64,000 bases of DNA from Chrysomallon squamiferum (taxonomy: Eukaryota > Animalia > Mollusca): the NCBI GenBank assembly GCA_012295275.1, contig CM022665.1, forward strand, positions 744,001 through 808,000, given 5' to 3'. The notes beneath the pieces are model-generated. The model worked only from the letters and a program-made list of their open reading frames with translations, searched no databases and was not told where the DNA came from. Below are positions 17,534 to 63,594 of this stretch, piece after piece (the stretch's first letter is position 1; each line of letters starts with the position of its first letter). The position numbers were made by a program, and so were the translations under genes.

Positions 17534-17597
<64 letters not shown>

Positions 17598-18291
17598 AAA
17601 ATATGTCATCAATGTTTTAAAATTATTTTAGATTGACTATAACCAAGTGATGGATATTTTAGATGATTGTCGACCTACTTTTGAACGTCTTGGAATTAAA
17701 ACACGTCAAGGTAAGTTTTAACTTTAACAAAATTCTAGATTTACGAACAAGATTCTATAGATTGCACAATGTCACAAATTAATGTCAAGATAAAAGTATT
17801 TAATAGTTTACATCCCACAAAGTATCATTTTAAATGAGATCACGTCAGTAGAATTAATATTATAAATATTTTATTTCATTTTGTTCATATAGTTGATGAA
17901 TTCATTGTATCTGAAGGAAGGAGTGATGAATTTATCGAAACAACAAGAAACACAAAACGTGCAGCTGAAGGTATATTGTAGTTTTATTTGACTACATTTT
18001 ATTTATTTATTTGTTTGTTTGTTTGTTTGTTTGTTTATTTATTTGTTGTTTATTTATTTGTTTGTTTATTGCTATTATTTGTATATCTGTTATTGTTGTT
18101 TTACTGTAATTATTATTAATGTTCTTATTATTGCTGTATTTGTTCTTGTTATTAGTTGTTATGATTATGATTATTAATAATACTAATATTACATTTTATT
18201 CATTTATTTTTTAATTATTATTTATCTATTTATTTATTTATCACTGGTGTAGTTGTTATTGTTTTTGTCACTGATGTTACTTGTAATGAAA

Positions 18292-18357
<66 letters not shown>

Positions 18358-18746
18358 GATACATGATATATTTAAGAAACAAAGAAATACAGAAAACCTT
18401 TTGGTATATTTACGATAAAGTCTACAAAATATTTGTTTCAAAGGTTATGTGTAACAAAGTATACGTTATTTTATTTATTTTAAACTGTTCTTTGTTATAA
18501 AATACACACATTACTTAACGTATAAGAAGTATATTATCTTTATTACGTCCTCTCTGATATTTAACAGATTTCTTGCTGGATGACAATGAGGAACTCAGCT
18601 GCAAAGTTTGTCTTGAAAACAAGGTCAGAATGGTTTTCCTGCCCTGCGGTCATCTTTGTTGCTGTGAAGATTGTACGTCCAGACTGCGAATATGTCCACT
18701 TTGTAGAGAGATAATCCAAGCCACTGTGCGAGCTTTCTTGTGTTAA
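12933..18746 (+). CDS. IAP-A: baculoviral IAP repeat-containing protein (octapeptide repeat region - BIR1 - Ser-rich linker - BIR2 - RING). Exons 12933-16328, 17127-17305, 17632-17710, 17893-17970, 18568-18746
   Basis: BIR1 ([17 protein letters not shown]...H...C). BIR2 is split by an intron (AEAGFFFS|[19 protein letters not shown]...EHARWFPQC). C-terminal IAP-type RING ([48 protein letters not shown]). All introns are GT-AG with matching phases (1,0,1,1). Confidence 0.95.
12950..15560 (+). repeat. Coding 24-bp minisatellite (gaacagttgagaagtgatgagaca; EQLRSDE[T/R]), about 109 units with some 21-bp units
   Basis: Directly visible. The + frame stays open across the whole array and continues into BIR1. 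Confidence 0.97.
16385..16735. repeat. Degenerate ~30-bp intronic minisatellite (ttgacattttaatagtcatttgaaatct-like)
   Basis: About a dozen degenerate units in the intron that splits BIR2; a homologous array lies at ~63660-63950 in IAP-B. Confidence 0.75.
18568..18746 (+). CDS. Terminal exon of IAP-A, C3HC4 RING E3-ligase domain (missed by the ORF track)
   Basis: tttaacag|AT TTC TTG...TTC TTG TGT TAA; canonical IAP RING cysteine/histidine spacing. Confidence 0.95.
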
Positions 18747-34751: not shown

Positions 34752-34951
34752 NNNNNNNNNNNNNNNNNNNNNNNNNNNNNNNNNNNNNNNNNNNNNNNNN
34801 NNNNNNNNNNNNNNNNNNNNNNNNNNNNNNNNNNNNNNNNNNNNNNNNNNNNNNNNNNNNNNNNNNNNNNNNNNNNNNNNNNNNNNNNNNNNNNNNNNNN
34901 NNNNNNNNNNNNNNNNNNNNNNNNNNNNNNNNNNNNNNNNNNNNNNNNNNN
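34752..34951. other. Assembly gap (200 N)
   Basis: Run of exactly 200 N, consistent with a fixed-size scaffolding gap. Confidence 0.99.
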
Positions 34952-35039
34952 TATTTAATATTTAGTTAACTTGTACTAGAATAAAATATGATGTATTCAG
35001 CAAAATATAAATAAATAAATAAATAAATAAGATCATATT

Positions 35040-37560: not shown

Positions 37561-37603
<43 letters not shown>

Positions 37604-43600: not shown

Positions 43601-46600
43601 TTTTTTAATATATCAATGTGTTTGAGTTGTTCTTTATAGAAATAATGTTATTAGGAATTTAGATAAGTTTAGAGATTATTAAATAACAGTTTTCTCTATC
43701 CAGTAATCAGATATTCATGACTTTATATATAATATTTTTAAAACATATGAAACCGATTTTAACTTTACTTCCTTGTTTTACGTTGTGTAAATTTTTACAG
43801 CTACTAATGAAGCTTTTCTAGGCGATTTTATTCGATTCAATGACTGACATAAAACATGCGTTGATCTTGGATTTAGTTAAAACAAATATAATAACAAAAA
43901 GTTTAAAACAAGACCAGCATTTTAACACATTAAATTTTAACTATCTTCAGATAATACAGAAAACGATATTCGTTTGTATTTGTTAGGAGCGACAACGAAA
44001 ATTTCATAAATATTGACCTGTTTGTGTCGCCCACTTTTTGAGTATCGTTTTCAATAATAGTTAGGAGTGTACAGAGTAAGTGTTAAGACAAATATTTAAA
44101 ATTATTACCTTTTTGTTACTAATATTATAAAATATTTATTTATTTTTTGTAATACAGAAACCTCTGATATGCCTGACAAGAATTAAGTTAAAAATGTTGA
44201 AAACATTTGGTAATTTTTACTTTTATTTTATTTTATTTATTATTTTTTTATAAATATATATATATATTTAAAATACGTCTTATTTGATTTTTTAATTAAA
44301 TTTTATTTAATTAGTTATTTTATTTAATTTTGTTTATTTATATGAATTATATTTCTTATACTAAAACATGCATTTTTTTAAAATTTAAATTACAACTAAG
44401 TACTTCATGTAAATGACAAACTTTCTTGTATATTATTTTCCTATATGCGTGAATAAAATGTACCCAGATTTGAATAAACATTTCTAAGTCTTTTTATTAT
44501 GATATTTTTTCTACTGGGCGGTATCAAAAGTTGCTGTTAGACACAGTATGAACACTTAACAGTTTTGCAGTTGGACTCTCCATATTCAGAATGTTATGCA
44601 GAATCTGTCGTTGTTGTTGTGCTAACATTTAGATCATGATGCATTCGAGAAAATCGTCAAATTCTTCTGGTATCTTACAATTTAAATATGTCTTTTCTTT
44701 TAGTTATTTATCAGAGGGTATCGTTGAAACTTTATACCAGTTTTCATAGTGCGGTAACAAAAGGTGCTGTTACACACAATATAAACTGTTTACTGTTTTG
44801 GAAGTCGGCTCTGTGTATTAGAATTTTATACAGAGTCAGTTATTGTCAATATGCTACCAGTTAGATCAGTTCTATTTATGTCAGAGTTGTTTTGTGGACA
44901 ATGTACAGGAAGATCCAAACATATCAAATTGACCGCTGTTTAATAGCAAGAGTATTCAAAGAAAATAAACTGAGTTGGTCTTAATAAGACATAAGACAAA
45001 GGAAGTTACTATAAGAGAAAGTTTGCAGTGTAAACAATATACCTAGTTGTAATATGAATAAAATTTAGTTAACTTTTACTAGAATAAAATGCAAAGTATC
45101 AACAGATTATAAATAAATCAATAAACATGGAAACAAAAAAATCAACAACTAAATAAATAAATGAATAAATAAATAAGTGAAGTTTAGTTAAATTAAATTA
45201 AATTAAATAATGTTCGTTAACTCGTTTATGATATTTTTCTTATTAGCGGTTCAAAGTCGCCAAGTTTATTTATATCACTTTGTACACGTAATTTCAGTCA
45301 CGTGATCGTTACGACATAGAAACGACCCATCTAACGCATCGAGGTGTCTGAGCTGTTCTTTACGGAAATAATTTGATTCGGAATTTAGGTAAGTTTACAA
45401 AAAATTTAATAACGATTTATATATCTAGTAAGTTATGAGATTATTCTCAATAGCAGTTAGATTTCTGGAATGTTAACGAGTTTATTTATATCACTTTTGT
45501 ACACGTAATTTGAAAATGTGATCGTTACGAGGTCGAGACAACCCGTATACATTGTGTTGTCTATTGTTTAATCTATCGAAGGGTTTGAGCTGGTCTTTAC
45601 AGAAACAATGTTACTAGGAATTTAAGTAAGTTTACACAAATTTTAACAACAGTTTTCTGTATCTAGTCATTTATGTGTATAAATATATATTTAAGTGTGC
45701 AGAGATATTTATTCTTTTTAAATGTATGAAACTGATTTTAACATTACTTCCTTGTTTACGTTGTGTAAATTTCCACCGCTAATAACGAAAATTTTCTCGT
45801 CCATTTTGTTCGATCCAGTGAGTCACGTAAAAGATGCGTAGACACTGGATTTAATTTTAAAAGGTTCAATAATAAGCCAGTATTTTTACACATTAAATTG
45901 TTGCTATCGTCAGATAAGAGAGAAAACGAACTTCTTTTCTAATTGTTAGGAGCGACAACGAAAATGCTACAAACACTGATCCATTTTTATACTTCTTCAG
46001 TATCGTTTTTAATTATAGTTACGAGCGAATAGAATAAGTCTAACACAAATATATAAAATTATTAGCTTTGTGTTTGTTTGTTTTTTTGTGGGGGTTTTTG
46101 TGAAACTGAAACGTTTGCGGACGAAAATATTTCCTGGAACGTTTGAGAACAGTGCATATAATTATTTACTACTCAGTGTAAGGTTAACTTTGCACTGCAG
46201 CATAATGTTTGCAAATAATTAAATCCGACATTAAAAAAGTATTCTGGTTTAGGATTATGACTGCACATTGACAATAGAATATATTGTACTCTGCAAAATA
46301 AAAATAAATAAAATAATAAATAAACAAATAATAAATAAAAGTGCACAAAAAATAAATGAAATAAAACACATAAAGGAAAAAAATACATAAACAAATAAAT
46401 AAAATATACACATAAAGCAACAACGAAACAAATAAAAGAAAAGAAATGAAAATGAAACAAAACATAAAAGAACAAACAAATAAATAAATAAATAATATAA
46501 AATGAAACAAAATAAAAGAAAATAAAAAATGGTGATAGCCTAAGTTATGATATTAGCAGTTAGATTTCTGGAAGGTTAACAAGTTTATTTATATCGCTTT

Positions 46601-46750
46601 TGTACACGTAATTTGAGTCACGTGATCGATATAATGTAGAGATAACCAGTAAATGTTTTGTTGTCTGTTTCTAATATATCAAAGGGTTTCAGCTGTTCTT
46701 TTCAGAAATAATTCGATTAAGAATTAAGTAAGTTTATATAAAAAAATAAT
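35040..46750. repeat. Three diverged ~3.8-kb tandem units, each built from several promoter/5'-exon-like modules; more diverged partial copies continue to ~50200
   Basis: Marker catgcgcagtgcgtgtc at ~35830, ~39659, ~43458; marker aaacgtttgcggacgaaaatat at ~38480, ~42286, ~46110. Confidence 0.92.
35054..35236 (+). promoter_or_regulatory. Putative promoter/first-exon module: kB-like GGGATTTTTCC, YY1-like CGCCATGTT, E-box GTCACGTGAT, ending at donor AG|GTAAGT
   Basis: Motifs at 35054-35064, ~35090 and 35125-35134 in a locally CpG-rich patch; consensus donor at 35237. Motif matches only. Confidence 0.5.
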
Positions 46751-49587
46751 AACAGTTTTCTGTATCTAGCCTTTTATGTGTGTAAATACATATTTATATA
46801 TGTAGAAATATGTATATTTTTTAAATGTAGGAACCAGATTTTAACTTTATTTCCTAAAACATTGTGTACATTTTCACAGCTAATAACGAAATTTTTCTTG
46901 TCGAATTTGTTCGATTCAGTGAATTACATAAAGCATGCGTAGACATAGATTTAGTTACAAAATAATAATAATAAAAGTTTAAAACAAGACCAGTATTTTA
47001 ACACAATAAATTTATATTATGCTCAGATAATATAAAGAAAACGATAATCTTTTGTATTTGTTAAGAGCGACAACAATAAAGTCACAAATACTGATCCATT
47101 TTTGTCGCCCACTTCTTGAGTATCGTTTTCTAATAAAAGTTGGAAGTGTATAGAGTAAGTGTTAAGAGAAATATTTAAAATTATTATATTTATATTGTTA
47201 ACATTATAACATATTTCCATGTACTTCTTTTCTTTTGTGAAACTGAAATCTCTATCATGCTTGACAAGATTTAAGTTAACAATGTAGAAAATATTTGTTA
47301 ATTTTTGTTTTATTTAGAACATTTTTTTAAATAAATAGAAAGTTTCAAAACATAAGTCTAATTTTTATTTATTTAATAAAAAAAAATGTTTTTTAAAATT
47401 AATTATTTTATTTAGTTCTGTTTGTTTAGTTATATGATTAATTTATAATTTATTCTAGGTAAAACTGCTTATATTTTACTTAAATTACAACTAAGTACAT
47501 AATTTTCATGGGAAACTTTCTTGTAGATAATGTTTCTATATGCTTCAATAAAATGTACCCAGATTTGAATAAACATTTTCAAAGTGTTTTTATTATGATA
47601 CTTTTCTACTGGGCGGTATCAAAAATTGCTGTGTTAGACACAAAATGAACAGATTGCGGTTTTGCTATTGGCTCAGTGTATTCAGAATATCAGACAGAAT
47701 AAATTATTATAATTCCGTAATCTTTTATATCAGTTTTATTCGTGACTGAGTTGGTTTTGTGGATAATATATAGGAAAATCCAAAGATTACAAATTGAACG
47801 TTGTCTAATAGGAAGAGTATTCAAAGGAAATAAACTGCAATAGCTGTACTATAAACAAATATTAGAGTATTTGTACTCTAATGAAAGTAAAATATCAGAA
47901 AATCATTCTACATTTAGGCCGAGGGAGTTAATGTAATACAAATGGAATTAATATTATAATAACAACATTTAGAAATTTTGTATTCAAATATGACAGAGTT
48001 TAACGTGTAAACAATGTACTTAGTTGCAAAGTTAATAATATTTAATTAACTTTACTAAAATATAATGTATTGACCAAATTATAAATAAATAAATAAACCC
48101 ATTTGTGTCACGACCCTTCCTCAATACTGTTTTTAACGATAGTTAAAAATACATCGATTAAATTTTAAGACAAATACTAAATATGTTTAGATCTATGTCG
48201 CTAAGTATATAAAATATTTGTGTGTGGTTTCTTTCTTTTGCAAACGAAACTTCTATTTTTGCAACGGACTAAACTACTTCCTGTAATGTTTGATAACAGA
48301 GAACATAATTTTTCGAGAAAATCAAACGAAATATCGATGTGTTTGAGGTGTTCTTTACAGAAATAATATGATTAGGAATTTATATAGACATTTCAATAAC
48401 AGTTTCCTTCATCCAGTAATCTTATATTTATGTCTGTAAATATTCTGATACTTTTTCAAATATATTAAACCGATTATAACTTTACACCCTCTCATCCTTG
48501 TTTAACTTTGTGTACGTTTCATATTAGCTAGAGAAGATTTTATTCAATACCAAAACTCACGTAAACAGCACACTGGATTTAGTTGAAATAGATGAATAAC
48601 AGGATCAGTGTTTGAAATAAGAATTACATTTTAACACATTTTACTATCTTCAGACAGTAAAAAAATTGACCTTCTTTCGTTATTTTGTATAATAATTAGA
48701 ATAATAGAGTAAGTGTTAAGATAAATATTTAAAAATATTAGCTTCCGTGTACTTCTTTTCTCTTCTGAAACTGAAACTTCTATTATGACTAATAGATTTA
48801 AATTAAAAATGTAAAAAAAACATTTGGTCATTTATTTTATCAGCAACAGATAAAAAAAAAAAAAAAAAAAACCAGTAAATAAATAAATAAATATATAAAT
48901 AAATAAATAATAATAAAAAAAAAAAAATAAAAAATAATAAAAAAATAAAATAAAATAAAATAAAATCATTAATAATAATAATAATAAATGTACTCGTCTG
49001 ATTTATTTTTTAACTTTTTTCTTATTTCGTTATTTTTATTGTTTTTATTTTTTCTTTTTTCCCCAAAATTGACTCCTGTTTGATCGCAAGAGTATTCAAA
49101 GAAAATAAACGACAATAGTTGTAATATAAATAAAGATTAGTGTATTTGTCTTGTAAGAAAAGTAATATATTTTAATATTATTATATTTTACACGTTGCAC
49201 ATTAATCCACTGAGTATAAGGTACAAGAAAATGTTACAAATATTTATGTTTCAGAAAATGTTCCTAGATTTATGAAGAGTGAGTTAAAGTAATACACATA
49301 AAATTAATGTTATAATAACAACATGTAAATGTGTATTCAAATCCGAGTTCATCTTATTAAGGCAGAAAATATAGGAAATACAATGTATTCAACAGATTAT
49401 AAATAAAGAAATAAATACATTAAAAAATAAAATGATATATATATATAATGAGTTAAAACATATAAATAAACAAATAAAATAATATTAAAAAGACGATGTG
49501 GCCTGACTTATCAGATTATTATCAACTGCAGTTCATTTTCTAGAAGGTTGCCAAGTTTATTTATAGAACTTTGTACACGCACTTTGA

Positions 49588-49690
49588 GTCACGTGATCGC
49601 TGCGACGTAGATACGACCCAGTACGTTTTGTTGTCTATTTTTAATGTGTCTGTGCTGTTCTTTACAGAAATAATTTCATTAGGAATACAG
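49588..49690 (+). promoter_or_regulatory. Most proximal E-box/first-exon module of IAP-B (homolog of the donor at position 16 for IAP-A)
   Basis: GTCACGTGAT at 49588 and donor CAG|GTAAGC at 49691; 49677-49900 aligns by eye with window positions 1-225. Confidence 0.45.
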
Positions 49691-50324
49691 GTAAGCGTAT
49701 AAACAATATAATAACAGTTTCCTCTTTTACCATATCCAGTCAACAGAAAAAAAAGAAAAAAAGAAAAAAAGACCTTCTTTTATATTTGTTACGAGACACA
49801 AAAAAAGGTCACAAATACTGACCCGTTTATGTCGCCCACTTTTTGAATATTTTTCTAAATAATTGCTAGGAGGGCACAGAGTAAGTGTGAAGAGAAATAT
49901 TTAAAATTATTAAATTTATGTTGCTAACATTATGTTCTTTCTCTCCTTCGTTCTACGCACGTAGACCTTGGATTTAGCTAATGAATTTAATAACATGACC
50001 AGTGCTTGAAATAATAATTACATTTTAACATATTTTATTATTTTCATATAATAGAGAACCAACCTTTTTGTATTTGTTACAAACAACAACCAAAGGGTCA
50101 GAAATATTCACCTGTTTCTGTCCTTAGATTGTCTGAATATCGTTTATAATAAAAGGAGTTTGTAGAGTAACGTTTGTGACAAACGTTTAAAATTATTAGA
50201 TTTACATTATAAAATATTTTCTTGTTATTTCGTTCTTTTCTAAAACCGAAATTTCTACTTCAAACAATCGACTAAAATATTTCCTGGAAAGGTAGATAAC
50301 AGTGTATTTAATTATTTTGCACAG

Positions 50325-50369
50325 GATTAATTCATATCAAAGGACTCCGTTGTCTCCTTGTGGAACTGA
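50325..50369 (+). CDS. IAP-B micro-exon, 45 nt, phase 1-1 (G-LIHIKGLRCLLVEL)
   Basis: attttgcacag|GA...CTG A|gtaacc; open; homolog of 1356-1400. Confidence 0.55.
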
Positions 50370-50613
50370 GTAACCTTGTCACTGACTTTCTCCGATAAAG
50401 AAAGAAAGACAAGTCATATAATTTTGTATTCATTTTAATATATTTTATATTTGATCAAATTCAAGATATCGAACAGAAAATTTATGAAACATACTTACAG
50501 CTATAAAATGTCAGTGGTATAATGTTACAGTGGTAAAGAGTTTTCCTTCACATAGGGTTACCCACAATCAATGATGTCAAGTATAAAATGTTTATATCAA
50601 TTTCTTATTGCAG

Positions 50614-50739
50614 AACAAACAGATCAACTGAGGGAAATGGCATTATCAAACTTTGGCTACGAACTGAACAACACTGTACCACCACCACACTTGCTAAACA
50701 GTGCAGCACCACCACACTTTATAAACTCAAGTTACACAG
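50614..50739 (+). CDS. IAP-B exon, 126 nt, phase 1-1 (QTDQLREMALSNFGYELNNTVPPPHLLNSAAPPHFINSSYT)
   Basis: tttcttattgcag|AA...ACA G|gtacat; in-frame 27-nt internal duplication relative to the IAP-A homolog. Confidence 0.7.
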
Positions 50740-51800
50740 GTACATTTGTTAGTTTAAAGATTTCTCAGCTGTAATGAAAAAACACAAAATTTTGTTTCGT
50801 AAGTTCTAATTTATAAAGAGAAGGATATCATATGAAACTGCTAGCTCAGTAAATTCAGCAGGAATTAACTTTTTAATAAGAACATAACTGTCTAATTCTG
50901 GTCGTGCTTTGGAACGATGTCTCACTTGAGGAGTCTTAAGGGTTTCTTTTTCATTGTCTATTTTGTTTTCAAGTGAACTCTGATACCTTAAATGTATCGC
51001 AATTATACATTCACATGTTTCGAAATTTATAGTAAATGTATATCTTACAGTTTTTTTTAATTCAGCAGTGACATGTGGATGTTGCTGCTTAATGTCAGCA
51101 CTGAATATCGCCTTTGAATCGTTGATATTTATGACAAACTTCATTTACATCAATATCAATACAACAACTTTGAATACAGCTTTTTCAATTTAACATTTAG
51201 CAGAACGCGCAGTCAAACTACGCTAGAATTAAGTTTGATTTACATTACGACATTGCAAACAGAGATGTCATGGTGACATAGTGTGAACACACTGATAATT
51301 CTTATCTACATGATTTGCAACCAATGTATTTATCCAAGTATGTAATAATTAACACATATAAATCCCTGTTACTTTACTTTCACGACTGAAGGTATGAGTT
51401 TATTTTCCTGTTTTGATTTTACGTATTAAAATACGACTATTTATGAGTAGTTACAAAATAGGTTATGGACAAACTTCTAAAAAACGTTTAGAAGCATATC
51501 ATTTTTATAAAATTGTTTTCTCAACTTTTCGTTGAAACAGTTAGTTACGTGTCACTAACAACTCAAAGACTTTTAAACACAGCAGTTTTAAAAGTCTCAT
51601 ATAAGGTTGTATTCATTGTCTTCTCGACAAATGTTTATCAGTTTGTGAAAGAGAAAACTTGCAGTAAGGAAAGAAAATCAATGAAAACAAATATGAGCAT
51701 TCCTATTAGTATTACTGATTTATATTACTGAAAAGTTGGCAATTTCTGACAATGCTAGAAAAGTTTATTTTTATTTATGTTACTGAAACTACATTTCTAG

Positions 51801-51854
51801 GATATCCACCTGCAGAGAAACTTCACACGATGGACAATGTCATTTTCCTTGCAG
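51801..51854 (+). CDS. IAP-B micro-exon, 54 nt, phase 1-1 (G-YPPAEKLHTMDNVIFLA)
   Basis: catttctag|GA...GCA G|gtacgt; open. Confidence 0.65.
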
Positions 51855-52930
51855 GTACGTAATTATTTCCTAAATTTCTTTTGCAGTTATGATGAATCAA
51901 CTTAGTTTCTGGTGAACGGGAGTTACTTTGATAATTTAAGTTAATCTCTAATTATTTACTTACATAGGTATTTAAGACTCATATAAGGTTGTATTCATTA
52001 TCTTTTCAACAAATGTTTATCAGTTTGTGAAAGAGAAAACTTGCAGTAAGGAAAGAAAATCATAAAACATTTCTTTTTTATTATCTATTTTGTTTTTTTT
52101 GAAGTGAACTCTGATACCTAAAATTACCTTAATTATATATTCACATGTTTCGAAATTTATAGTAAATGTATATCTTACAGTTTTTTTTAATTCAGCAGTG
52201 ACATGTGGATGTAGCTGCTTAATGTCAGCACTGAATATCGCCTTTGAATTGTTGATATTTATGACAAGCTTCATTTGCATGAGTAATAATATAAAATCTT
52301 TCAGTACAGCTTTGCAGTTTACAATTTAGCAGAACTCGCAGTCAGACTACGCTAGAATTAAGTTTGATTTACATTAGAACATTGCAAACACAGACGTCAT
52401 AGTGACAGACTGAACAGATAATTCTTATCTACGTGATTTGCAACGAATATATTTATCCAAGTGTGTAATAATTAACCTATACATTGTTGTTACTTTACTT
52501 CCGTGTCTGATGTTTGATTTTACGTATTAATAGTGACTACGTATGAGTAGTTAGTAAATACTTCTAGTTAGGTAGATACTTCTAGAAAACGTTTAGAAGT
52601 ATATCTGTGTTACAAAGTGGTTTCCGCAATTTTTCGGTGAAACATTTAGTAAGCTGTAACTAACAACACAAAAACTTTTAAAGACAGCAGTTTTTACAGT
52701 CTCACATGGGGTAGTATTCACTGTCTTCCCAGGAAATGTTTATGAGGTTGTCGAAGTGAAAACATCCAGCTAAGAAAGAGAAACAAGCAAAACAAATATG
52801 AAAATTCGTATTAGTTTAGTGATTTATATTAGTGAAAAGTGGTATATAATGTTTACTGGCATAAATAGCCATTGATACTACTCAGCTATGCTAGAAATAT
52901 TTATCTTTATATACGTTACTTAAATTACAG

Positions 52931-52993
52931 ACGCACAACGACAGCCGACAGCCATTTCCAAATCAGAAAGAGTGGAACAGAGGTGTAATTCAG
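52931..52993 (+). CDS. IAP-B micro-exon, 63 nt, phase 1-1 (D-AQRQPTAISKSERVEQRCNS)
   Basis: taaattacag|AC...TCA G|gtacag; open, GC-richer than its flanks. Confidence 0.7.
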
Positions 52994-53986
52994 GTACAGA
53001 ATTACTTGTTAACTTTCTTCTCTAGCTATGATAAAGCAAATTACCTTCTGGTGCATGGGTGCCAATTTGTTGTTTTAAACAGAAATCTAATTATTGACTT
53101 ACATTAGTGAAAATTAAATTATTAACACCATTAATACATATGTTTAGCATTTGGCTTTCGTTTATAGTTTATTCTATGTTTTTAGTAGAGAAGACAATCT
53201 GAACTTTGTATACATATAAAATTATAAAAAGCATAAGGTTGTCTTTAGTTAATATGCCTAGTTTAAAGATTTCTCAGATGTAATGAAAGAACACAAAATT
53301 TTGTTTGATAAGTTGTAATTTATAAACAGAAGGATATCACATCAAACTGCTAGCTCAGTAAATTCAGCAGCAATTAAGCTTTTTAAGAAGAACACAACTG
53401 TCTAAATCGGGCTTTGGAACGATGTCTCACTTGAAGAGTCTTAAGGGTTTCTTTTTCACTTTCTATTTTGTTTTCAAGTCAACTCTGATACCTAAAATTA
53501 CCTTAATTATACATTCACATGTTTCGAAATTTATAGTAAATGTATATCTTACAGTTTTTTTTAATTCAGCAGTGACATGTGGATGTAGCTGCTTAATGTC
53601 AGCACTGAATATCGCCTTTGAATTGTTGATATTTATGACAAGCTTCATTTACATGAGTAATAATATACAAACTTTCAGTACAGCTTTGTAGTTTACAATT
53701 TAGCAGAACGCGCAGTCAGACTACGCTAGAATTAACTTTGATTTACATTACAACATTGCAAACAGAGGTGTCACAGTGACAGTCTGAACAGATAATTCTT
53801 ATCTACATGATTTGCAACGAATATATTTATCCAGCTGTGCAATAATTAACCTATAAATTGTTGTTTCTTTACTTCCGTATACGACGTTTGATTTTACGTA
53901 TTAATATAGCCTGCGTATGAGTAGTTACTAATTATACTCGACAATGCGATGAATGTTTTTGTTTTTTTATGTTACTGAAATTACAC

Positions 53987-54073
53987 ATCTACAAAAAGAC
54001 GTTTCTGTAAAGAGTCGATTGACACTGAAGTGTTGTAAAGAATTAGAATTAATGAAACGCAAGAATAATTCAG
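53987..54073 (+). pseudogene. Decayed 87-nt micro-exon (D-LQKDVSVKSRLTLKCCKELELMKRKNNS) with both splice sites mutated
   Basis: ctgaaattacac| (AG>AC) and cag|ttacgt (GT>TT) at positions homologous to intact exons; the frame is still open. Confidence 0.55.
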
Positions 54074-54813
54074 TTACGTAATTATTTCCTAACTTATTTT
54101 TGCTGTATGCTGAATCAATGCAGTTTCTTGTGAATGTGTTTTACTTTTATGTTTTAAGCTAAACTCTAATTATTTACTTTCTTCAGCATTTAAAAAATGT
54201 TTAATTAATTACTAATACGAGTAATACATATTTTTGGTATTTGTCTTTGGTTTATATGTTCTTTATTTGATGAATAGAGACTAGAAAGTCTGAACTTTAT
54301 ATACATATAAAATTGTTAAAGTAATAAGATTATCTATAGTTAATATATGCAAAGGAATGTATTTAGTGAAAAGCATTTTCAGTAGACATCAGGGTTTGAA
54401 TGTTGAACACAAAATTATCCTGTTTCGTGACAGCTGTAAAAATCTGATAGTAGTCAGTGATAATTTCGTACAGCTGAGATTTTCAGTAATGACATCCACA
54501 ACAAATCATGATCATGTTCATGTTTATTAATAAAATGGTAATATTTGCGTGTTATAAAATATCAGTAGTATTGTCTTATAATTCTAAAGAGACTAGCTGA
54601 AAACAGGGTGACCCACACTCCACTGATACATATTACTGAAATTAAATATTTGAGAAATGAAGTGAGGAATACTGAAATATTAAACTTCGCAAGGGAAGTG
54701 CCCTACAGTACAAGAAAATCAAAGAATACAATATTTTTTTGTTGCCACAAAATGCCAGTGTTACTGTACAGTAGCAGAAATATTTATATTTATTTATTTT
54801 ACTGAAATTACAG

Positions 54814-54864
54814 ATGTAACACGTGAATCAGTGAAGAGTAAGATTATACTCATGTGTAATGCAG
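54814..54864 (+). CDS. IAP-B micro-exon, 51 nt, phase 1-1 (D-VTRESVKSKIILMCNA)
   Basis: ctgaaattacag|AT...GCA G|gtaaat; open. Confidence 0.7.
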
Positions 54865-55172
54865 GTAAATTATTAATTGTTAACTTTCTTTTCTATCTGT
54901 GATTAAACAGCGTGATTTTACTTAAAAGTAATGAATAGATTGTTATTATTATTTATTTATTTATATTATTATTATTACTTTAATTATTTTGGTTTGTTGT
55001 TTTGCCAGCAGCTAGTGTGTTTTTAAAGACCAAAGATATAAATGTTTAAATAAACGGACTAAACTTCCATCTGACTGTTGCTCATGATACGATGATCAGT
55101 ATATTTCTTCTTATAATCGTAAACTGATGATCATTTTTTAATTTTAAATATTTTGTTTTTCTGAAATATCAG

Positions 55173-55217
55173 TGCCAGAGATTGAAATGAGATCTGTGTT
55201 ACTGCTTATGTATTTAG
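55173..55217 (+). CDS. IAP-B micro-exon, 45 nt, phase 1-1 (V-PEIEMRSVLLLMYL)
   Basis: ctgaaatatcag|TG...TTA G|gtacgt; open. Confidence 0.7.
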
Positions 55218-55224
55218 GTACGTT

Positions 55225-55366
<142 letters not shown>

Positions 55367-56113
55367 TTGTATAAAGTTCTTAAATTTAACAGTTTTGAAA
55401 GGATCATGATAGATCACAGGAAGAAATAAAAACTAAATTTGTTTTTACTAAAGCTTCTTGTGTAATTTTTTACTTTATGTGACAAATCTTTTTCTGTTGT
55501 TGTATAAGAACCTGATTTTGATAGTCGCACTTAACACTGATATCTCAGGGGATTTTAGAATTTAGTATTTTCTCTGTTTCTTTCTTTCTTTTTTTATTAA
55601 TTTATTATTATTACTTTTTGTTGTTTGTAACTAGCAGAAAGAATGCATGTCAAGATATAAATGCTTAAAAACACAGTCTAATCTTCCATCTCATTTTTGC
55701 ATTTAATCATGATAGCCGAACGGTACATTTTAAAAGTTCGGCAATAAAATACTGGTATTTTGTAATTAGAGTAGCTCACAGGACCCTACCACATATATAT
55801 TTCAGTAAATATACAGCATTAACATCTATAACGTTTTTTAATAAGTGAAAATATAATACAGACTTTAATAATCAAATCTGAATATCGCAAGTTAGTTCCT
55901 CGTTCAAAGATTTATCATAAGCAGTGATCTCAGAACTTCATCAATGTCCTGGTTTCCTTGTCAAATAGTCTGTCTCTTTCTGATTTTGTACAACTTTCTA
56001 GTCTGAATATCTATCTCATTAAAATAAAACGTGAAAAATAATAATTTTCTTGTAACTGTAAACTGATGTTAATATTTAAATTTTAAACTAATTGATGTTT
56101 TCAGTAATATCAG

Positions 56114-56164
56114 GGTTAAGGAACTTGATCACTAATTGTCCAGATCTTATGAGGGTTATACAAG
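56114..56164 (+). CDS. IAP-B micro-exon, 51 nt, phase 1-1 (G-LRNLITNCPDLMRVIQ)
   Basis: gtaatatcag|GG...CAA G|gtatgt; open. Confidence 0.7.
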
Positions 56165-56211
56165 GTATGTTTTATTATTATTATTATTAGTACTATTATT
56201 ATTATTACTAC

Positions 56212-56252
<41 letters not shown>

Positions 56253-57412
56253 GTTTATATAAAGCTTTTAAATGTAACAGTTTTGAAAGGATCATGATAA
56301 ATCACAGGAACAAAAAAATTAAATCTGTTATTACTAAAGTTTCTTGTTTAACTTTATTCTTTATGTGACAGATAATCTTTTTTTTTTTTTTTTTTTTTTT
56401 TTTATAAGAGCCTAATTTTCATAGTCGCACTTAACGGTGATATTTTAGGGGGGATTAAGAATTTAGTATTTTTCTCTGTTTCTTTCTTTCTTTCTTTCTT
56501 TATTTCTTGTTTAAAGTTTTGTTTGATATAATTTGACATAATTCGTAAGTACTCTTTCTGATAATTATTTGCACATATGGAAAAATATGTGGAACACACA
56601 CACACACACACACACATTTCGTTTATAATTTATTCTATTTTATTATTAGAGACAAGAGAATCTGAACTTTATATGCATATACAGTTATTAAAGGCATAAT
56701 AGTATCGTTAGTTAATATGCTTAGTTTAAAGTTTCTGAAATGTAATGAAAGAACACAAAATTTTGTTTGATAAGTTGTAATTTTTTAAGTGAAGGATATC
56801 AGATCAAACTGCTAGCTCAGTAAATTCAGCAGCAGTTAACTTTTTAAGAAGAACATAACTGTCTAATTCGTGCTTTGGAACGATGTCTCACTTGAGGACT
56901 TTTAATTCTCTATTTGGTTTTCAAGTGATCTCTGCTACTTTAAATGCATCTTACTTATACACACATATTATTAAATTTATAGTAAATGTATATCTTACAG
57001 TTTTATTAATTCAGCAGTGACATGTGGAGGTGACTGCTTAATGTCGGCACTGAATATCGCCTTTGAATTCGTGATATTTATGACAAACTTCATTTACATC
57101 AATAACAATATACGAAATTCCAATAAAGCTTTGTAGATTAAAATTTACAAGAATTCAAACACAGCAGTTTTAAAAGTCTCATATCCGGTTGTATTCGTTG
57201 TCTTCTCAAGAAATGTTTATCAGTTTGTCAAAGTGAAAACTTACAGTAAACAAAGAAAATCAACCAAAACAATCTGAACATTCGTATTAGTTTTAGTGAT
57301 TATATTACTGAAAAGTTGTAAATAAATTTTACTGGCATATAAAGGCATTGGTAATACTTGACAATACTAGAAATGTTTATCTTTATTTATGTTACTGAAA
57401 CTACGTCTGTAG

Positions 57413-57466
57413 GACTTCAGTCTGCAGAGACATTTTTCAAGGACAGCAAAGGCTGGTGGGCGTCAG
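57413..57466 (+). CDS. IAP-B micro-exon, 54 nt, phase 1-1 (G-LQSAETFFKDSKGWWAS)
   Basis: gtctgtag|GA...TCA G|gtacgt; open. Confidence 0.65.
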
Positions 57467-57813
57467 GTACGTAATGATTTCCTAAATTTCTTTTGCAGTT
57501 ATGATGAATCAACTTAGTTTCTATTATTTATTTTAATTAGTGAATGTTTGTCAGTGATTTCGAATTATTGCAAGTCAGACAAATGTCTGCTTCATTTCCC
57601 AGTTTTAAAAATTATCCCAAAAGATAAGCGTGGAGTTTCATTAATGTCCTGGTTTCGTTTTCAAATAGTTTATCTATCTGTGATTTTGTGCATTTTTATA
57701 TTCTGAGTGACTACTACGTGAATATAATAGGTGAAAAATAATTACTTTCTTATAAATGTTAGCTGATGTTAATTTTACACATTTTATGTTTATCTATATT
57801 TCTGAAATTACAG

Positions 57814-57894
57814 GTTTAACCGATGAATTAATGGAAATCAATCTACACAAAACTTGTTCAACTTTAAATACAGTAGAAAACAGCACAATAAAAG
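57814..57894 (+). CDS. IAP-B micro-exon, 81 nt, phase 1-1 (G-LTDELMEINLHKTCSTLNTVENSTIK)
   Basis: ctgaaattacag|GT...AAA G|gtatgt; open. Confidence 0.72.
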
Positions 57895-58178
57895 GTATGT
57901 ACAATTTAATTGTTTTTTTTTTTGGTTTTTTTTTTTAATTTTGTAAATTTAGTAATTTTGGAAAGATGATGAAATAACACAGAAAGTAGTAAAAAATAAA
58001 TATATTATTACATGATTAAACCTTCTTAGTTTAGTGTCATACTTTATGTAACACGTGACGCTCGTTTTATTAAAACGTAATTTGCATAGTCACCCTCCGT
58101 AATGTCTGACTTGAGGGGATTCGTAAAGTTCTTGTTTTTTTGTTTTTTCTAATTTTATTTTATTTATTTTTGTTCATT

Positions 58179-58218
<40 letters not shown>

Positions 58219-58587
58219 TATTTATTACTGTTATTATTATCAAAAGGAGAACCATTTAATAGATCAGCAAGCTGTGTTTCTGACAGTTATTTGCAGATAC
58301 TGAGAAACGCTTTTTGCATTTTGTATTCAAAGTGAAACGCGTACTCATCTAAGGAAAACGCTGAAATTTCTATCTCGATGTCATCTGTGGATGCTTAGAA
58401 CAACTCATCCTTACAACTCATAATCTCCATTCTAGATTGGCGAGATAAATGATGAATATAATTGATCCTTTTAAACAAAATTAGAGAAAACTACATCGCC
58501 TATATCTAATGTAAAATCATAACAGTGTGACGAACCACACTTCACAGATGTTAATTTTTAAATGTTTGTTTTAATTTCATCTTACAG

Positions 58588-58647
58588 AACTTACAGAGCT
58601 AAGTGATAAGCTGGTGAAGATGATAAAGAGGATCTTTCAGCTTTTAG
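58588..58647 (+). CDS. IAP-B micro-exon, 60 nt, phase 1-1 (E-LTELSDKLVKMIKRIFQLL)
   Basis: tttcatcttacag|AA...TTA G|gtactt; open. Confidence 0.65.
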
Positions 58648-59295
58648 GTACTTTTACACGTTCTTGAACCTAACTTATCAAGCGATTGTCATATATTTAA
58701 TCTTCTGTACTTTTATGTGGTAAAGAACTCTGTTTTATTCTTTATCAACAATACCTGTGAAGCAAAGAAGTAATTGCCTATACATTCACTTATTTAGTAT
58801 GCTATAAAATATTGATATATTGTAATTTCAGTAGCTGATAGAGCCCTACCCTGATTTTACCTCACTCATACCTTTCAATTAATATACGAACATCAACATC
58901 TATTATTTATTTTAATTAGTGAATGTTTGTCAGTGATTTCGAATTATTGCAAGTCAGACAAATTTCTCCTTCACGTGCTTGTTTCAAAATTGTTAAATAA
59001 TTTATAAAAAAAAAAATAATAATAATTATCTTAAGGTAAGCATGTACACATGTACCAAAAGGCTCTAGTTGTCTTGAAGTCATGTATGGATCTTAAAAAA
59101 TGTTGATGCCTAAAACTCTTCTTTAATGTACTGGTTTCATTGTCAAATACTTTGTCTATCTGTGACTTTGAGCATTTTTTTTATTCAGAATAACTATCGC
59201 CTGAGAATATAATATGAAAAATAATAAATTTCTTATAATCATAAACTGATGTCAATTCTTAAATTTTAAATCAATTAATTTTTCTGAAATGACTG

Positions 59296-59333
59296 GGCTA
59301 GTTATGGAAGTGTATAACTTGGTGCTTGAAGCA
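59296..59333 (+). pseudogene. Decayed duplicate of the 61323-61361 micro-exon (G-LVMEVYNLVLEA)
   Basis: Acceptor gacag>gactg and donor deleted; flanks match those of 61323-61361. Confidence 0.6.
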
Positions 59334-61322
59334 TTATTATTATTATTATTATAAAATTTTTAAATATACAAATTTTGAAAAGATCATGATAGATCAGGGG
59401 TAGAAGTAAAAGATAATTCTGTTATTACTAGATTAAAATTTGTTAGTTTAATTTTCTGTAAGATAAATGTACTTGTAAACATAAAATATAATTTACATAG
59501 TGCTTTTTCACAGTGATATCTGATTTGACGGGTTAGAAACTTTTAATGTTTTAGTCTTTATTTATTTATGTTATTATTATTGAAAGAACCGATATATTGC
59601 ACCATTTGACATAGCCGTAAACTCTGTTTCTGACAGTTGTTAGCAGATATGCAGAAACGCTTTTTGTATTGTAAGTGAAACACCTCCACATCCAGCAAAA
59701 AACGTTGTCTATTTCGAAGTTATATGTGAATGCTTGGAAGAATTCATCCTTAAATGTTATAATCTCCATTCTACACTGGCGAGATAAATCATGAATACAA
59801 CTGATCTATTTAAATAAAATGACTGAAAACTCCATTACATATTTCTAATTTAAAATCATAACAATTTGATGAACCGCACTCCACAGATGTTAAATTTAAA
59901 ATATTTTTAATTTCTTTTATACTTTTTTAGATCCAAGATACTAAACTGGAGGGGGGGGGAAGGAAATAATTTTTACTCCTATAAAATTCCAGTGGTATTA
60001 GATGATAATGCCTAAACTGATCCAGATTTAGATTGTAGCTGAGAATGTGATGATCCACACTCCATTGGTATTAATTTTATAATGTTTACACATTCTAACG
60101 AAATTGCAGATCTGAGAGATGAGCCGATGGAAATGAAACTGATAATCGATCAGAGTGCCCTAACGTATTGTAAACTTTCTTTTCTAGCTGTCATTAAACA
60201 ACGCGATCATGCTATATAAATCGATTGTTATAAATGTTTCCTTTTCCTTTTTTCTTTGTTTTTTTTATTGTTGTGTAACAGTAGGAAAAGACTTCTTAAA
60301 GAATGCTCTGAAACAAAGAATGGGTGTTATTTTATTATTTACCACAAATATTCAACAAATTTTCTCATTGAATAAGTAATTTAATGAAATGAAAGCAGTA
60401 TGAACGTGTTACAATAAAGTTTATACATCTATCAGAGACGTTAAATATATGTTAATTATACATGTTCAGAAACTGATAGTGAATGTTTATCTTAGCGTTT
60501 TATTAATTCAGCAGTTACTTTTGGCTGTTTAATGATAAAATAGTTGTTGATAATTTATGACTTCATTTACACTAAAAATAATACACAAACCTTCAAACCA
60601 ACTTTAATTACTTATTTATTTATTTATTTATTTATTATATTCTAACCTTGTCAGTGACATTCTCCGATAAAGAAAAGAAAACGAATCATATAAATTTGTA
60701 TTAATTCAATTGTCTTTCATGTTTTATCAGATTCAAGATATCAAACAGAACATTTGCCAATAATATTTACAGCTATAAAATGTCAGTAGTATTATTTTAC
60801 AATGCTAAACAGGCTTCCTAGAAATAGGGAAAACTTGTTCACCATTAAATGAAGTTGAAAACATCACTGTAGACTGTAACTACAATTTAATTTTTTAACG
60901 CATAAATACAATATTACATGATTAAACATTGTTAGTTTACTTTCATACTTTATGTAACAAGTGACCCTCGTTTTATTCACGTAATTTGAATAGTCACCCT
61001 TTGGAATGATTTCTGACTGGAGGGGATTCGTAAACATTTAGTTTATTTCTAATGTTTATTTTCATCTGTTTGTTTATTTATTATTTTTGTTGTTATTACT
61101 GAAAGGAGCACCATTTGATCTTAAAAAATGTTCATGCTTAAAACTCTTCGTTAATGTGCATGTTTCGTTGACAAATACTTTGTCCATCTGTGACTTTGAG
61201 CATTTTTTTAATCTGAATAACTATCACATGAGAATATAACACGAAAAATACTCTTTTTCTTATAATCATAAACTTATGTTTATTCACAAATTGTATATCA
61301 ATTTATTTTTCTGAAATGACAG

Positions 61323-61361
61323 GCCTAGATATGGAAGTGTATAAGATGCTGCTTGAAGCAG
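61323..61361 (+). CDS. IAP-B micro-exon, 39 nt, phase 1-1 (G-LDMEVYKMLLEA)
   Basis: ctgaaatgacag|GC...GCA G|gtatgt; open; its start resembles the IAP-A exon 12359 (LVMEVK). Confidence 0.72.
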
Positions 61362-62034
61362 GTATGTTTTTATTATTATTATTATTATTATGAAATTTTC
61401 AAATATATAAATTTTGAAAAGACCATGATAGATCACAGGAAGAAATAAAAGATAAATCTATTATTACTAGATTAAAGTTTGTTAGTTTAATTTCCTGCTT
61501 ATGTAACAAGTCCTTTTTTCTTTTTTGATAAGGACGAAATTTTCATGTTAGCACTTGATACCTGAGAGGATTAAGAATTTAGTATTTTTCTCTAATTCTT
61601 TGTTTGTGATAATTATCCGCGAATATGAGAAAACCCATTTTTATCATACGGCAAACACGTTTACATTACACAGGATATATATTTATATATACACACACAC
61701 ACACACACACGCAGAAAGATAAAAATAAAAATGAGAAAGACCACGTTTATCTTTTAATAAAACCAAATCGAAAAATGTTTGAATGACTACAATATGAATA
61801 TAATAGATGAAAAATAATTATTTTCTTATAACCATAAACTGATGTTAATTTTACAAATTTTATCTTTATTTCGTCTGAAATTACATATATCTGTACAATC
61901 TTTTTTCTTTTTTTTCGAAAGAATATAAAAGTTATAACAAATAAATATATTTTTACATGATTAAACGTAGTTTAATTTCATACTGTATGTAAGAAGTTGC
62001 TTTGGTTTTATTAAAATATAATGTGATGTTACAG

Positions 62035-62958
62035 AACAGTTGAGAAGTGCTGAAACAGAACAGTTGAGATGTGAAGAGAGAGAACAGTTGAGAAGTGATG
62101 AGACAGAACAGCTGAGAAGTGATGAGAGAGAACAGTTGAGAAGTGATGAGACAGAACAGCTGAGAAGTGATGAGACAGAACAACTGAGAAGTGAAGAGAG
62201 AGAACAGCTGAGAAGTGATGAGACAGAACAGCTGAGAAGTGATGAGACAGAACAGTTGAGAAGTGATGAAACAGAACAGTTGAGAAATGATGAGACAGAA
62301 CAGCTGAGAAGTGATGAGAGAGAACAGCTGAGAAGTGATGAGACACAACAGTTGAGAAGTGATGAGACAGAACAGTTGAGAAGTGATGAGAGAGAACACT
62401 TGAGAAGTGATGAGAGAGAACAGTTGAGAAGTGATGAGACAGAACAGTTGAGAAGTGATGAGAGAGAACAGCTGAGAAGTGATGAGACAGAACAGTTGAG
62501 AAGTGATGAGAGAGAACAGTTGAGAAGTGATGAGACAGAACAGCTGAGAAGTGATGAGAGAGAACGGTTGAGAAGGGACGAGAGAGAACGGTTGAGAAGT
62601 GATGAGACAGAACAGTTGAGAAGGGACGAGAGAGAACGGTTGAGAAGTGATGAGACAGAACAGTTGAGTGAAGAGACAGAACAGCTGAGAAGTGAAGAGA
62701 GAGAACAGTTGAGAAATGAAGAGACAGAACAGTTGAGTGAAGAGATAGAACAGCTGAGTGAAGAGATAGAACAGCTGAGAAGTGATGAGAGAGAACAGCT
62801 GAGAAGTGATGAGACAGAACAGTTGAGAAGTGATAAAAGAGAACAGCTGAGAAGTGATGAGAGAGAACAGCTGAGAAGTGATGAGACAGAACAGTTGAGA
62901 AGTGATGAGATAGAACAGCTGAGAAGTGAAGAGAGGGATCAGTTGAGAAGTGATGAAT
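62035..62958 (+). repeat. Coding 24-bp minisatellite (EQLRSDE[T/R]), about 38 units
   Basis: Directly visible; same unit as in IAP-A. Confidence 0.97.
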
Positions 62959-63594
62959 TCGGGACAGAACATTCAGACACTGTCAGATACAGGAGGGAGT
63001 GGGACCGATATGCATCTTACTTACGATTTCCTCTAACCTCAGCCTGGCCAAGTCGTCTTGCAGCTGCTGGATTCTACTTCACTGGGACTGGGGATCGCGT
63101 TGTTTGCTTCAGCTGTGGTCAGAGCTATGATCACTGGAGACGTGGAGATAACCCAATGGACATTCATAGACAAATATCACCAAGCTGCAGATTTGTCCTG
63201 GGAGAGGAAGGAAATGAACCGATTAGTGTAAGTGAGAATGCTGAGCAGAGACTTCAAGAATTCCTGGGCAGGTTATCTGTCAGTTCAGTGTTACCAGTAC
63301 TGAGATCTTCTGCTATTGAAAGTGAAACACTTCACAGTTCTGTCAGTGGTGGTGCTGTTGCCTCTAATGATTCTCATCAAAGTTCTTCACAGCTCAGTCT
63401 CAGTAATTTACCAATCCTTCAGCTGTCCGCTTTTATGTCTGGAAGCTCCTCGACATCAGACCTGGGATTGCATGCAGCACGTCACCCCGAGTACGTCGAC
63501 GTACAACGACGTATTTCGTCTTTTCAAAACCGATGGCCACATCCTGACAACCAGTCTCTGAGAGAACTGGCAGAAGCCGGTTTTTTCTTCTCTG
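62035..63594 (+). CDS. IAP-B large exon: octapeptide repeats, BIR1, linker and first half of BIR2 (gene continues beyond the window)
   Basis: atgttacag|AA CAG TTG (phase 1) ... TTC TCT G|gtcagt. BIR1 [17 protein letters not shown]...H...C; same intron position as IAP-A. Confidence 0.93.

Follow-up and report, generated by a model that had tools for sequence, protein, structure and literature searches.

In a 64,000-nt stretch of Chrysomallon squamiferum DNA (hereafter the window), we found that the region upstream of the large exon of an IAP gene, IAP-B, carries an array of 11 short segments (E1–E11) that, judged from the sequence, are very likely real coding exons. Ten of the 11 belong to a tandem series in which a single exon-intron unit is repeated, with homologous flanks and diverged bodies. 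This relationship was absent from an earlier note on this DNA, which had taken the exons for independent and mutually dissimilar peptides; their paralogy speaks against independence. We consider it probable, with some reserve, that these diverged tandem copies, which keep one frame, encode a hypervariable N-terminal leader tuning the stability or partners of a gastropod two-BIR IAP. The short exons, all in phase 1-1, and the large exon are as follows.

E1: 50325-50369, plus strand, 45 nt; strong acceptor, weak donor; outside the main unit family
E2: 50614-50739, plus strand, 126 nt; carries the first in-frame ATG of IAP-B; fast-evolving
E3: 51801-51854, plus strand, 54 nt; E8 is its closest paralog
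E4: 52931-52993, plus strand, 63 nt
E5: 54814-54864, plus strand, 51 nt
E6: 55173-55217, plus strand, 45 nt
E7: 56114-56164, plus strand, 51 nt
E8: 57413-57466, plus strand, 54 nt
E9: 57814-57894, plus strand, 81 nt
E10: 58588-58647, plus strand, 60 nt (51 nt if the homologous acceptor, at 58597, is used); the sole clearly amphipathic peptide
Twelfth candidate exon, absent from the earlier list: 60110-60154, plus strand, 45 nt; open, AG intact, GT donor weak
E11: 61323-61361, plus strand, 39 nt; holds the last ATG before the large exon
IAP-B large exon: 62035-63594, plus strand; 39 copies of a 24-nt repeat (eight residues, charged), BIR1 and the first half of BIR2

The lengths and phases that the earlier note gave for its 11 AG..GT segments proved correct: they total 669 nt, all 11 are stop-free in phase 1-1, and the array is in frame with the acceptor of the large exon at 62035. 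Read in the two other frames, only 3/11 and 4/11 are open. The label "micro-exon" holds for their symmetry but not for their size, as judged by customary size cut-offs; because only five of the 11 stay within 51 nt and all exceed 30 nt, "short exons" is the better name.

Scoring of splice sites against shuffled sequence, a check that the note had proposed, supported the exons. Acceptors were chosen blind to frame using approximate weight matrices, donor thresholds were set at ≥4 bits and ≥2 bits, and 60 dinucleotide shuffles served as a null. With donors of at least 4 bits, seven of eight segments were both symmetric and open, and the corresponding share in shuffles was 3.7% (an average of 3.1 candidates, of which 0.12 combined both properties, maximum 1, n = 60); a control region at 19-31 kb gave 2/7, and the reverse strand yielded no candidates. 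Lowering the threshold to 2 bits gave 9/14, compared with 0.45 of 12.0 in shuffles, 0/11 on the reverse strand and 2/19 in the control. The blind scan recovered nine of the 11 exons exactly; E1 fell under threshold and E4 was given a different acceptor. Among 673 GT sites, seven of the top nine are donors of the exons first listed, while that of E1 is poor (rank 206). Acceptors of E1–E11 are weak (ranks 3-106 of 610), and branch-point motifs, counted without a chance control, lie upstream of 11 of 18 acceptors. Exon GC content is 40.1%, compared with a mean of 27.4% and a maximum of 34.4% in 5000 random intron sets.

The common origin of the units emerged from their introns. A profile built from intronic acceptor flanks only identified 14 units in 50.5-61.9 kb, nine of which were in its training set, and 15 matches upstream of the paralog IAP-A; there were none elsewhere in the 64-kb window and none on the minus strand. 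Every unit that retains its AG (11/11) has an open body whose length is a multiple of 3. Body lengths take eight distinct values (39-87 nt) that differ by multiples of 3 only, and 8/57 intron indels are multiples of 3. Three further copies are inactivated.

Dead copy: 53987-54073, plus strand, 87 nt; frame still open, length a multiple of 3, neither splice site retained
Dead recent copy of E11: 59296-59334, plus strand, 39 nt; open, both splice sites lost
Truncated dead copy: 61819-61900, plus strand; acceptor flank retained, AG lost, exon body absent

Since an open frame and a length divisible by 3 persist in two dead copies, openness alone is no proof of present use. The shared 1-1 symmetry is partly inherited because the exons are copies of one ancestral unit. 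The variation demonstrated here is genomic: exon birth, exon death and differing copy number between two paralogs.

The second paralog, IAP-A, lies in the same window and carries its own, differently expanded set of short exons.

IAP-A cassette: 1022-11613, plus strand; eight units of 1412 bp, almost identical to one another; every unit holds phase 1-1 segments of 42, 45 and 99 nt, homologs of E8, E1 and E2
IAP-A last short exon: 12359-12445, plus strand, 87 nt, phase 1-1; hydrophobic peptide
IAP-A body: 12933-18746, plus strand; large exon, then 17127-17305, 17632-17710, 17893-17970 and a RING exon at 18568-18746, all in frame

In the E8-like copy of IAP-A, the donor and one base have been lost, and a new strong donor yields 42 nt, again a multiple of 3. 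The IAP-A large exon starts with ATG and encodes 107 repeats, BIR1 and half of BIR2, and the body is intact to its stop. Membership of the IAP family is indicated by a BIR match in the IAP-B large exon (PF00653, E=3.5e-24) and by the two BIRs of IAP-A. For IAP-B, the window covers BIR2 only as far as its first half, and a RING is seen only in IAP-A (PF13920, E=1.1e-14). BIR1 occupies one exon and an intron interrupts BIR2 (16328/17127 in IAP-A, 63594 in IAP-B), a DIAP1-like gene structure. From these domains only, we infer E3 ubiquitin ligase or anti-apoptotic activity. BIR and RING domains imply a cytosolic protein.

The exon bodies have diversified, as the earlier note had proposed: in several pairs they diverge more than their flanks, and the changes are mostly amino-acid changing. 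E3 and E8 differ at 26/54 exon sites versus 10/116 flank sites (p=1.7e-8; pN/pS 0.59/0.21), and in E6/E7 the aligned flanks are 78% and 88% identical and the body 44%. In several other pairs, divergence of the exons does not outpace that of the flanks. Pooled exon pairs, which are non-independent and include one dead copy, gave pN 0.135 versus pS 0.048 (one-sided p=0.04). Between paralogs, E2 shows 14 non-silent and no silent changes (pN/pS 0.24/0, p=0.03). E1 is conserved, with no non-silent excess (pN 0.06, pS 0.21), and E8 has none either (0.10/0.14). As controls, BIR1 gave 0.05/0.18 and the BIR2 half-domain 0.09/0.08; by this measure BIR1 is under purifying selection between the paralogs. 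Variants within public sequencing runs were silent at 3/5 sites in E1 and non-silent at 4/4 in E2. Among the E2-like copies of IAP-A, the changes fall in a tract where five intron sites are altered as well, a pattern that favors gene conversion over point selection. In these comparisons, the selection signal is thus modest and uneven, strong for E2 and E3/E8 and absent for E1 and for E8 versus its IAP-A copy. The note's description of several amphipathic helices was not supported: one of the 11 peptides exceeds shuffles (E10, p<0.001), and E1 (p=0.29), E6 (p=0.86) and E11 (p=0.40) do not.

The IAP-B large exon has no Met before residue 374. In-frame ATGs occur in eight of the 11 short exons, often a few codons in, and also in most extra copies; E1, E4 and E8 have none. 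One candidate for the 5' end was identified upstream.

Exon-like segment: 49668-49690, plus strand, 23 nt; likely 5' untranslated; acceptor 5.0 bits and donor 8.7 bits, the best of each in 35-50 kb

This segment contains no in-frame ATG. It has 22-24-nt paralogous copies upstream, 1/14 of which is a multiple of 3 in length, and a 5' non-coding module is tandemly repeated across 35-49.7 kb.

The closest named relatives are three Gigantopelta aegis IAPs (XP_041379548.1, XP_041354958.1 and XP_041350670.1; P0001, P0003 and P0004), with 57-60% identity in BIR1, 75-78% in the second half of BIR2 and 73% in the RING, which two of the three possess. G. aegis is also listed as having expanded IAPs in the available text of one report (PMC7895826). 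All three are laid out in the same way as our genes: the leader is 200-290 residues long and varies in blocks, and a short-period repeat spacer leads to two BIRs. However, the spacer sequence is different and the leader peptides are not significantly alike, in a comparison made at the protein level. The structure model of P0001 is poor (pLDDT 0.47). E1 and E3/E8 resembled a block of the G. aegis leaders, a match that was set aside (best p=0.005 of 57 tests; outside the top 41 in a whole-window scan), and tblastn of the G. aegis leaders on the window gave nothing significant. Comparison of 17 peptides with 167 proteins returned short, chance-level matches only and no database protein with these peptides; a search with the E2 peptide among longer proteins gave three candidates, none of which scored. 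Among 1.84 billion representatives, the nearest proteins were those of the G. aegis set and one relative, P0068, which is uninformative on the leader exons because its sequence ends at the same exon border. A metagenome scan found 24 loci at 25-49% identity, none close, and an Atlas search with the P0001 leader gave no usable match.

A literature search, with most subscription journals and supplements (where gene models might show some) outside its scope, found no short symmetric exon array on an IAP. The sources compared here are represented by parts of their text. Lophotrochozoan DIAP1-like IAPs with two BIRs and a RING share with our genes a BIR1 in one exon, a C-terminal BIR over two exons (PMC13159474), a phase 0-1 exon followed by a last RING exon, and tandem paralogs (PMC13159474; PMC7831173; PMC8917759). 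Their diversity is described as BIR and RING domains being gained and lost and as gene duplication, whereas a short symmetric leader-exon array is not mentioned in those parts (PMC13159474; PMC7831173; PMC8917759). The Schistosoma mansoni gene SmVAL6 and the MEGs likewise have many small same-phase exons, attached in SmVAL6 to a conserved domain without a signal peptide, and MEGs show raised dN/dS (PMC2270263; PMC4350168). However, their exons are smaller (17/38 <20 bp), those of SmVAL6 are C-terminal, and skipping is shown by cDNA (PMC2270263; PMC4350168), with 67 clones yielding 35 SmVAL6 isoforms (PMC2270263). The products of MEGs carry signal peptides (PMC2270263; PMC4350168), and homology with the IAP array is not implied. 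Nor does most of the IAP-B coding sequence reside in very small symmetric exons: at 39-126 nt each, they sum to 669 nt, against a 1560-nt large exon and further 3' exons.

Brown-algal ROCO genes and NB-ARC-TPR genes offer a parallel in architecture, in that their symmetric exons are tandem paralogs, dead copies lie in the introns, exons are reshuffled from one paralog to another and selection is diversifying (PMC3341825; PMC11378527); ROCO LRR exons are alternatively spliced (PMC11378527). The IAP locus likewise has tandem paralogous frame-neutral exons, inactivated copies and different sets between paralogs. In the algal genes, though, every exon encodes one LRR or TPR of constant length, part of a folded binding surface (PMC3341825; PMC11378527). 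The IAP-B exons vary from 39 to 126 nt and their peptides have no common fold motif, few peptide pairs aligning beyond shuffles. In lepidopteran IAP leaders, degrons before BIR1 drive turnover on infection (PMC4966970), and NLRP1 and CARD8 have rapidly evolving, cleavable N-termini that act as protease tripwires; no exon array is described for either in the text available, and the likeness to the snail leader is one of analogy.

Under the reading we favor, the copies would be spliced into the IAP-B mRNA, because no other start codon of IAP-B lies near the large exon. The array would grow, shrink and reshuffle through unequal crossing-over and gene conversion; given the common 1-1 phase, gain or loss of any copy would keep the frame, and selection would remove frameshifts while favoring or tolerating new peptides. 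The weak acceptors, and the fact that omitting an exon leaves the frame intact, give some reason to expect skipping, and we are evenly divided as to whether it occurs. By analogy with insect IAP leaders, the leader may serve as a surface for regulation, with degrons or sites of cleavage or docking, held ahead of BIR1 by the long charged repeat spacer. A regulatory role is probable; a bait or tripwire role is suggested by analogy.

Public runs were placed on 49000-55255, which covers E1–E6 (three RNA runs and one of unidentified kind, X1, X2, X3 and X5 of five found; word shares 0.13-0.38). RNA-run contigs cross exon-intron borders, and contigs from the runs extend over introns and match the IAP-A unit as it stands in the genome. 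None of the 15 joints listed (of 29) is GT..AG; because the contigs look genomic, this is uninformative on splicing. In a fuller version of the idea, free skipping and inclusion in each cell would produce many leaders; enzymes of pathogens or symbionts would take these as bait or trip them like wires, and by cleaving a leader would destabilize the IAP and let the cell die. The phase 1-1 of every exon, the weak acceptors with strong donors and the diversified bodies fit such a library, and SmVAL6 (PMC2270263), ROCO LRR exons (PMC11378527) and, in the text available, NLRP1/CARD8 tripwires are precedents. We hold it doubtful: symmetry inherited from one ancestral unit is equally needed for plain exon gain and loss, the eight near-identical IAP-A units give length rather than variety, and skipping and a bait role are two separate hypothetical steps. 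The ancestral unit might instead have been an ATG exon, each transcript using one copy, or the first included ATG, and thereby gaining a short alternative N-terminus. The frequency of in-frame ATGs, the ATG-less candidate upstream exon and the repeated 5' module are in keeping with this, yet start exons used one at a time would work without a multiple-of-3 length or an open frame ahead of the ATG, and all exons have both; with three exons lacking any ATG, we consider it quite improbable.

A more neutral account would accept the exons as real and the leader as disordered and dispensable, with recombination making copies, only frameshifts being purged, and flank likeness reflecting gene conversion or splicing constraint. 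The locus is unstable, with dead and truncated copies, a recent eightfold unit expansion and a spacer of 39 versus 107 repeats; the poor P0001 model and the exon pairs that diverge no faster than their flanks agree with it as well. But the non-silent excess in E2 (14:0) and E3/E8, together with body divergence above that of flanks, exceeds simple neutrality, and E1 is conserved, so we judge this account unlikely. The segments could also be repeats in decay, whose splice signals are relics or due to chance, or what is left of a pseudogene. The close resemblance of dead copies to live ones, the lack of GT..AG ends among the joints listed for the genomic-looking contigs over E1–E6 and the position of the IAP-B 3' end beyond the window would suit this reading, which we regard as very improbable in light of the splice-site enrichment, GC content, indel pattern and start codons, purifying selection on BIR1 and the intact IAP-A body.

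IAP expansions are known from molluscs, and this locus suggests an extra layer of their IAP diversity, in which exons of the leader are born, die and diverge. Gene finders would tend to miss such short exons in AT-rich DNA. We speculate, by analogy and with low expectation, that this snail IAP family has a shuffled, combinatorially spliced library of fast-evolving bait or degron peptides, a diversified sensor on an apoptosis brake that possibly polices intracellular microbes. If the exons are spliced combinatorially or the leader is cleaved on infection, the locus would provide invertebrate immunity with a death regulator that carries a diversified sensor inside cells, and the purpose of the molluscan IAP expansion would become testable.

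The window is AT-rich animal DNA carrying two paralogous IAP genes, IAP-A and IAP-B, both on the plus strand, with an array of predicted short exons (the cassette) 5′ of each body. Three features anchor the description:

772-11884, upstream of IAP-A: array of eight nearly identical 1412-bp units
12933-18746, plus strand: IAP-A body, in frame throughout, with a large exon, then three short ones and finally a RING exon
62035-63594, plus strand: IAP-B large exon, with 39 repeats, BIR1 and half of BIR2

The IAP-A large exon encodes 107 copies of a 24-nt repeat, then BIR1 and half of BIR2; this in-frame spacer occupies 13006-15561, compared with 62023-62956 for the 39 copies of IAP-B. As IAP-B extends past the window end, we infer its C-terminal RING. 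The gene is an IAP by its Pfam match, and the exon plan matches lophotrochozoan DIAP1-like genes as presented in excerpts of two reports (PMC13159474, PMC7831173). Among named proteins the best matches are three IAPs of Gigantopelta aegis (57-60% identity in BIR1, 75-78% in BIR2), placing the gene in a gastropod lineage; these relatives carry their own short-period repeat at the equivalent place, unrelated in sequence to the window spacer. Between the IAP genes lie overlapping, GC-richer minus-strand open frames of 232 and 351 residues (25517-26215 and 26151-27206), neither with a Pfam match.

Upstream of the IAP-B large exon, all eleven AG..GT-bounded segments that the earlier note had described (E1-E11, 50325-61361) were located. 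Together they amount to 669 nt; every one has a length divisible by 3 and stays open in phase 1-1, and the remaining two frames are open in only 3 and 4 of the 11. Because those segments had been found partly by following open frames, we picked acceptors frame-blind, using approximate splice weight matrices, 60 shuffles and a control region. With donors of at least 4 bits, symmetry and an open frame held for 7 of 8 candidates, while shuffles gave 0.12 of 3.1 (maximum 1) and the control region 2 of 7; the counts were 9/14 against 0.45/12.0 at 2 bits or more, and 12/34 against 1.3/26.7 at 0.5 bits or more. The scan regained 9 of the 11 segments exactly. GC content, which played no part in their selection, is 40.1% in the segments versus 27.4% in intron (maximum 34.4% in 5000 random intron draws). 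The weakest case is E1, whose donor ranks 206 of 673; it is nonetheless conserved, with mostly silent changes. E1-E11 are predicted, with high confidence, to be real exons. They are short and symmetric as proposed, but at 39-126 nt they exceed most definitions of a micro-exon, and instead of several amphipathic helices only E10 proved amphipathic beyond shuffles.

With the exception of E1, which is a separate type outside the main family, the segments are copies of a single exon-intron unit. A profile built from intronic acceptor flanks alone identified 14 units before IAP-B and 15 matches before IAP-A, with none elsewhere in the window; nine of the 14 units are training sequences, and E2 (E=0.07) and the 60110 unit (E=0.16) are weak held-out matches. 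Eleven of the 14 IAP-B units (E2-E11 and 60110-60154) retain the AG, and all 11 bodies are open multiples of 3; of the three units lacking it, 53987-54073 and 59296-59334 are still open and the third is truncated. Body lengths take eight distinct values, all differing by multiples of 3, whereas among 57 indels separating introns of the paralogs just 8 are of such a length. The sole exception is an E8-like copy in IAP-A, which measures 53 nt up to a dead homologous donor and for which a new 6.9-bit donor gives 42 nt.

Exon bodies are often more diverged than their flanks. Identity upstream, in the body and downstream is 85/52/93% for E3/E8, 78/44/88% for E6/E7 and 92/83/92% for E2 against its IAP-A copy, although the pattern does not hold for E1 (93/91/93%) and E8 (92/89/83%) against IAP-A. 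The pN/pS values are 0.59/0.21 for E3/E8 and 0.24/0 for E2 against its IAP-A copy (14:0 non-silent to silent, p=0.03). Five closer pairs, which are non-independent and include a dead copy, pool to 0.135/0.048 (p=0.04), compared with controls of 0.05/0.18 (BIR1) and 0.09/0.08 (BIR2 half). The bodies have therefore truly diversified, though not evenly, with positive selection suggested rather than proven.

The IAP-A cassette has a different complement, in which eight 1412-bp units (42-, 45- and 99-nt segments) are followed by an 87-nt exon. Units 2-7 have 35 variable columns in a mosaic pattern, 13 of them within one 87-bp tract spanning the E2-like acceptor and exon, which suggests gene conversion. 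A public sequencing run (X1) holds a contig of this unit at depth 47, versus about 3-6 for other pieces, fitting genuine multi-copy DNA. In the peptide of the last short exon (12359-12445), a run of 17 residues is strongly hydrophobic, with a mean hydropathy of 2.1, and could be a membrane anchor for IAP-A.

Five runs match part of the locus, and four were compared with 49000-55255, which spans E1-E6. Their contigs span introns and read unspliced across exon borders; none of the 15 joints listed, out of 29, was GT..AG, and the contigs behave as genomic or unspliced material. One run (X5) gave 645 contigs at 90-100% identity, with summed depth of 150-1000 versus about 45-150 per listed contig, suggesting several related genomic copies, not a high-copy transposon. 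In another (X3), a contig matching 50648-50761 comes from a related copy in which 38 other letters without GT stand in for the E2 donor and the half of the exon before it, a dead E2 of another paralog or allele. Protein databases yielded no protein with the segment peptides. The leaders of the Gigantopelta aegis models are long and vary among themselves in blocks of roughly 7-45 residues, consistent with exons having come and gone; their likeness in sequence to the window peptides is not significant.

The first Met of the IAP-B large exon is residue 374, within BIR1, so the start lies upstream. In-frame ATGs occur in 8 of the 11 segments, beginning with E2, and a candidate 23-nt exon at 49668 contains none; alternatively, the true first coding exon may sit farther upstream, past a gap near 34.75-34.95 kb. 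The IAP-A large exon begins with ATG, so cassette use is not required there. At 34950-49700 lies a presumed promoter or 5′ non-coding module in tandem repeats (period about 3.8 kb), which may act as a set of alternative promoters. Of the 9 TCACGTG sites in the window, 7 fall here, as do at least 14 copies of an exon-like segment of 22-24 nt, many of which have lost a working donor or acceptor.

Taken together, the comparisons show a frame-neutral array in which exons have been gained, have been lost and have diverged, and unequal crossing-over with conversion would drive this change. Once spliced, the exons would form a variable leader before the charged repeat spacer and BIR-BIR-(RING) core. 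Exon skipping is plausible, and we lean neither towards it nor against it. Our best functional guess is a regulatory leader bearing degron, cleavage or docking sites, favored because lepidopteran IAP leaders carry infection-triggered degrons, according to part of one report (PMC4966970). We regard this whole account, array growth by recombination plus a spliced variable regulatory leader, as somewhat probable; the full case for a combinatorial library of spliced peptides serving as baits seems unlikely.

Insofar as excerpts of the source reports describe them, SmVAL6 (PMC2270263), schistosome MEGs (PMC4350168) and brown-algal ROCO arrays (PMC3341825, PMC11378527) work similarly. The IAP array belongs to neither type: for a MEG its exons are too large and make up too little of the coding region, and unlike ROCO exons they are not structural repeats of fixed length. 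Oyster IAP domains undergo alternative splicing, with leader arrays not described in the portion consulted (PMC8917759), and a literature search mostly outside subscription journals and supplements returned no IAP with such a cassette. The gene architecture is real and unusual, and the IAP exon array is a variant of known array designs.
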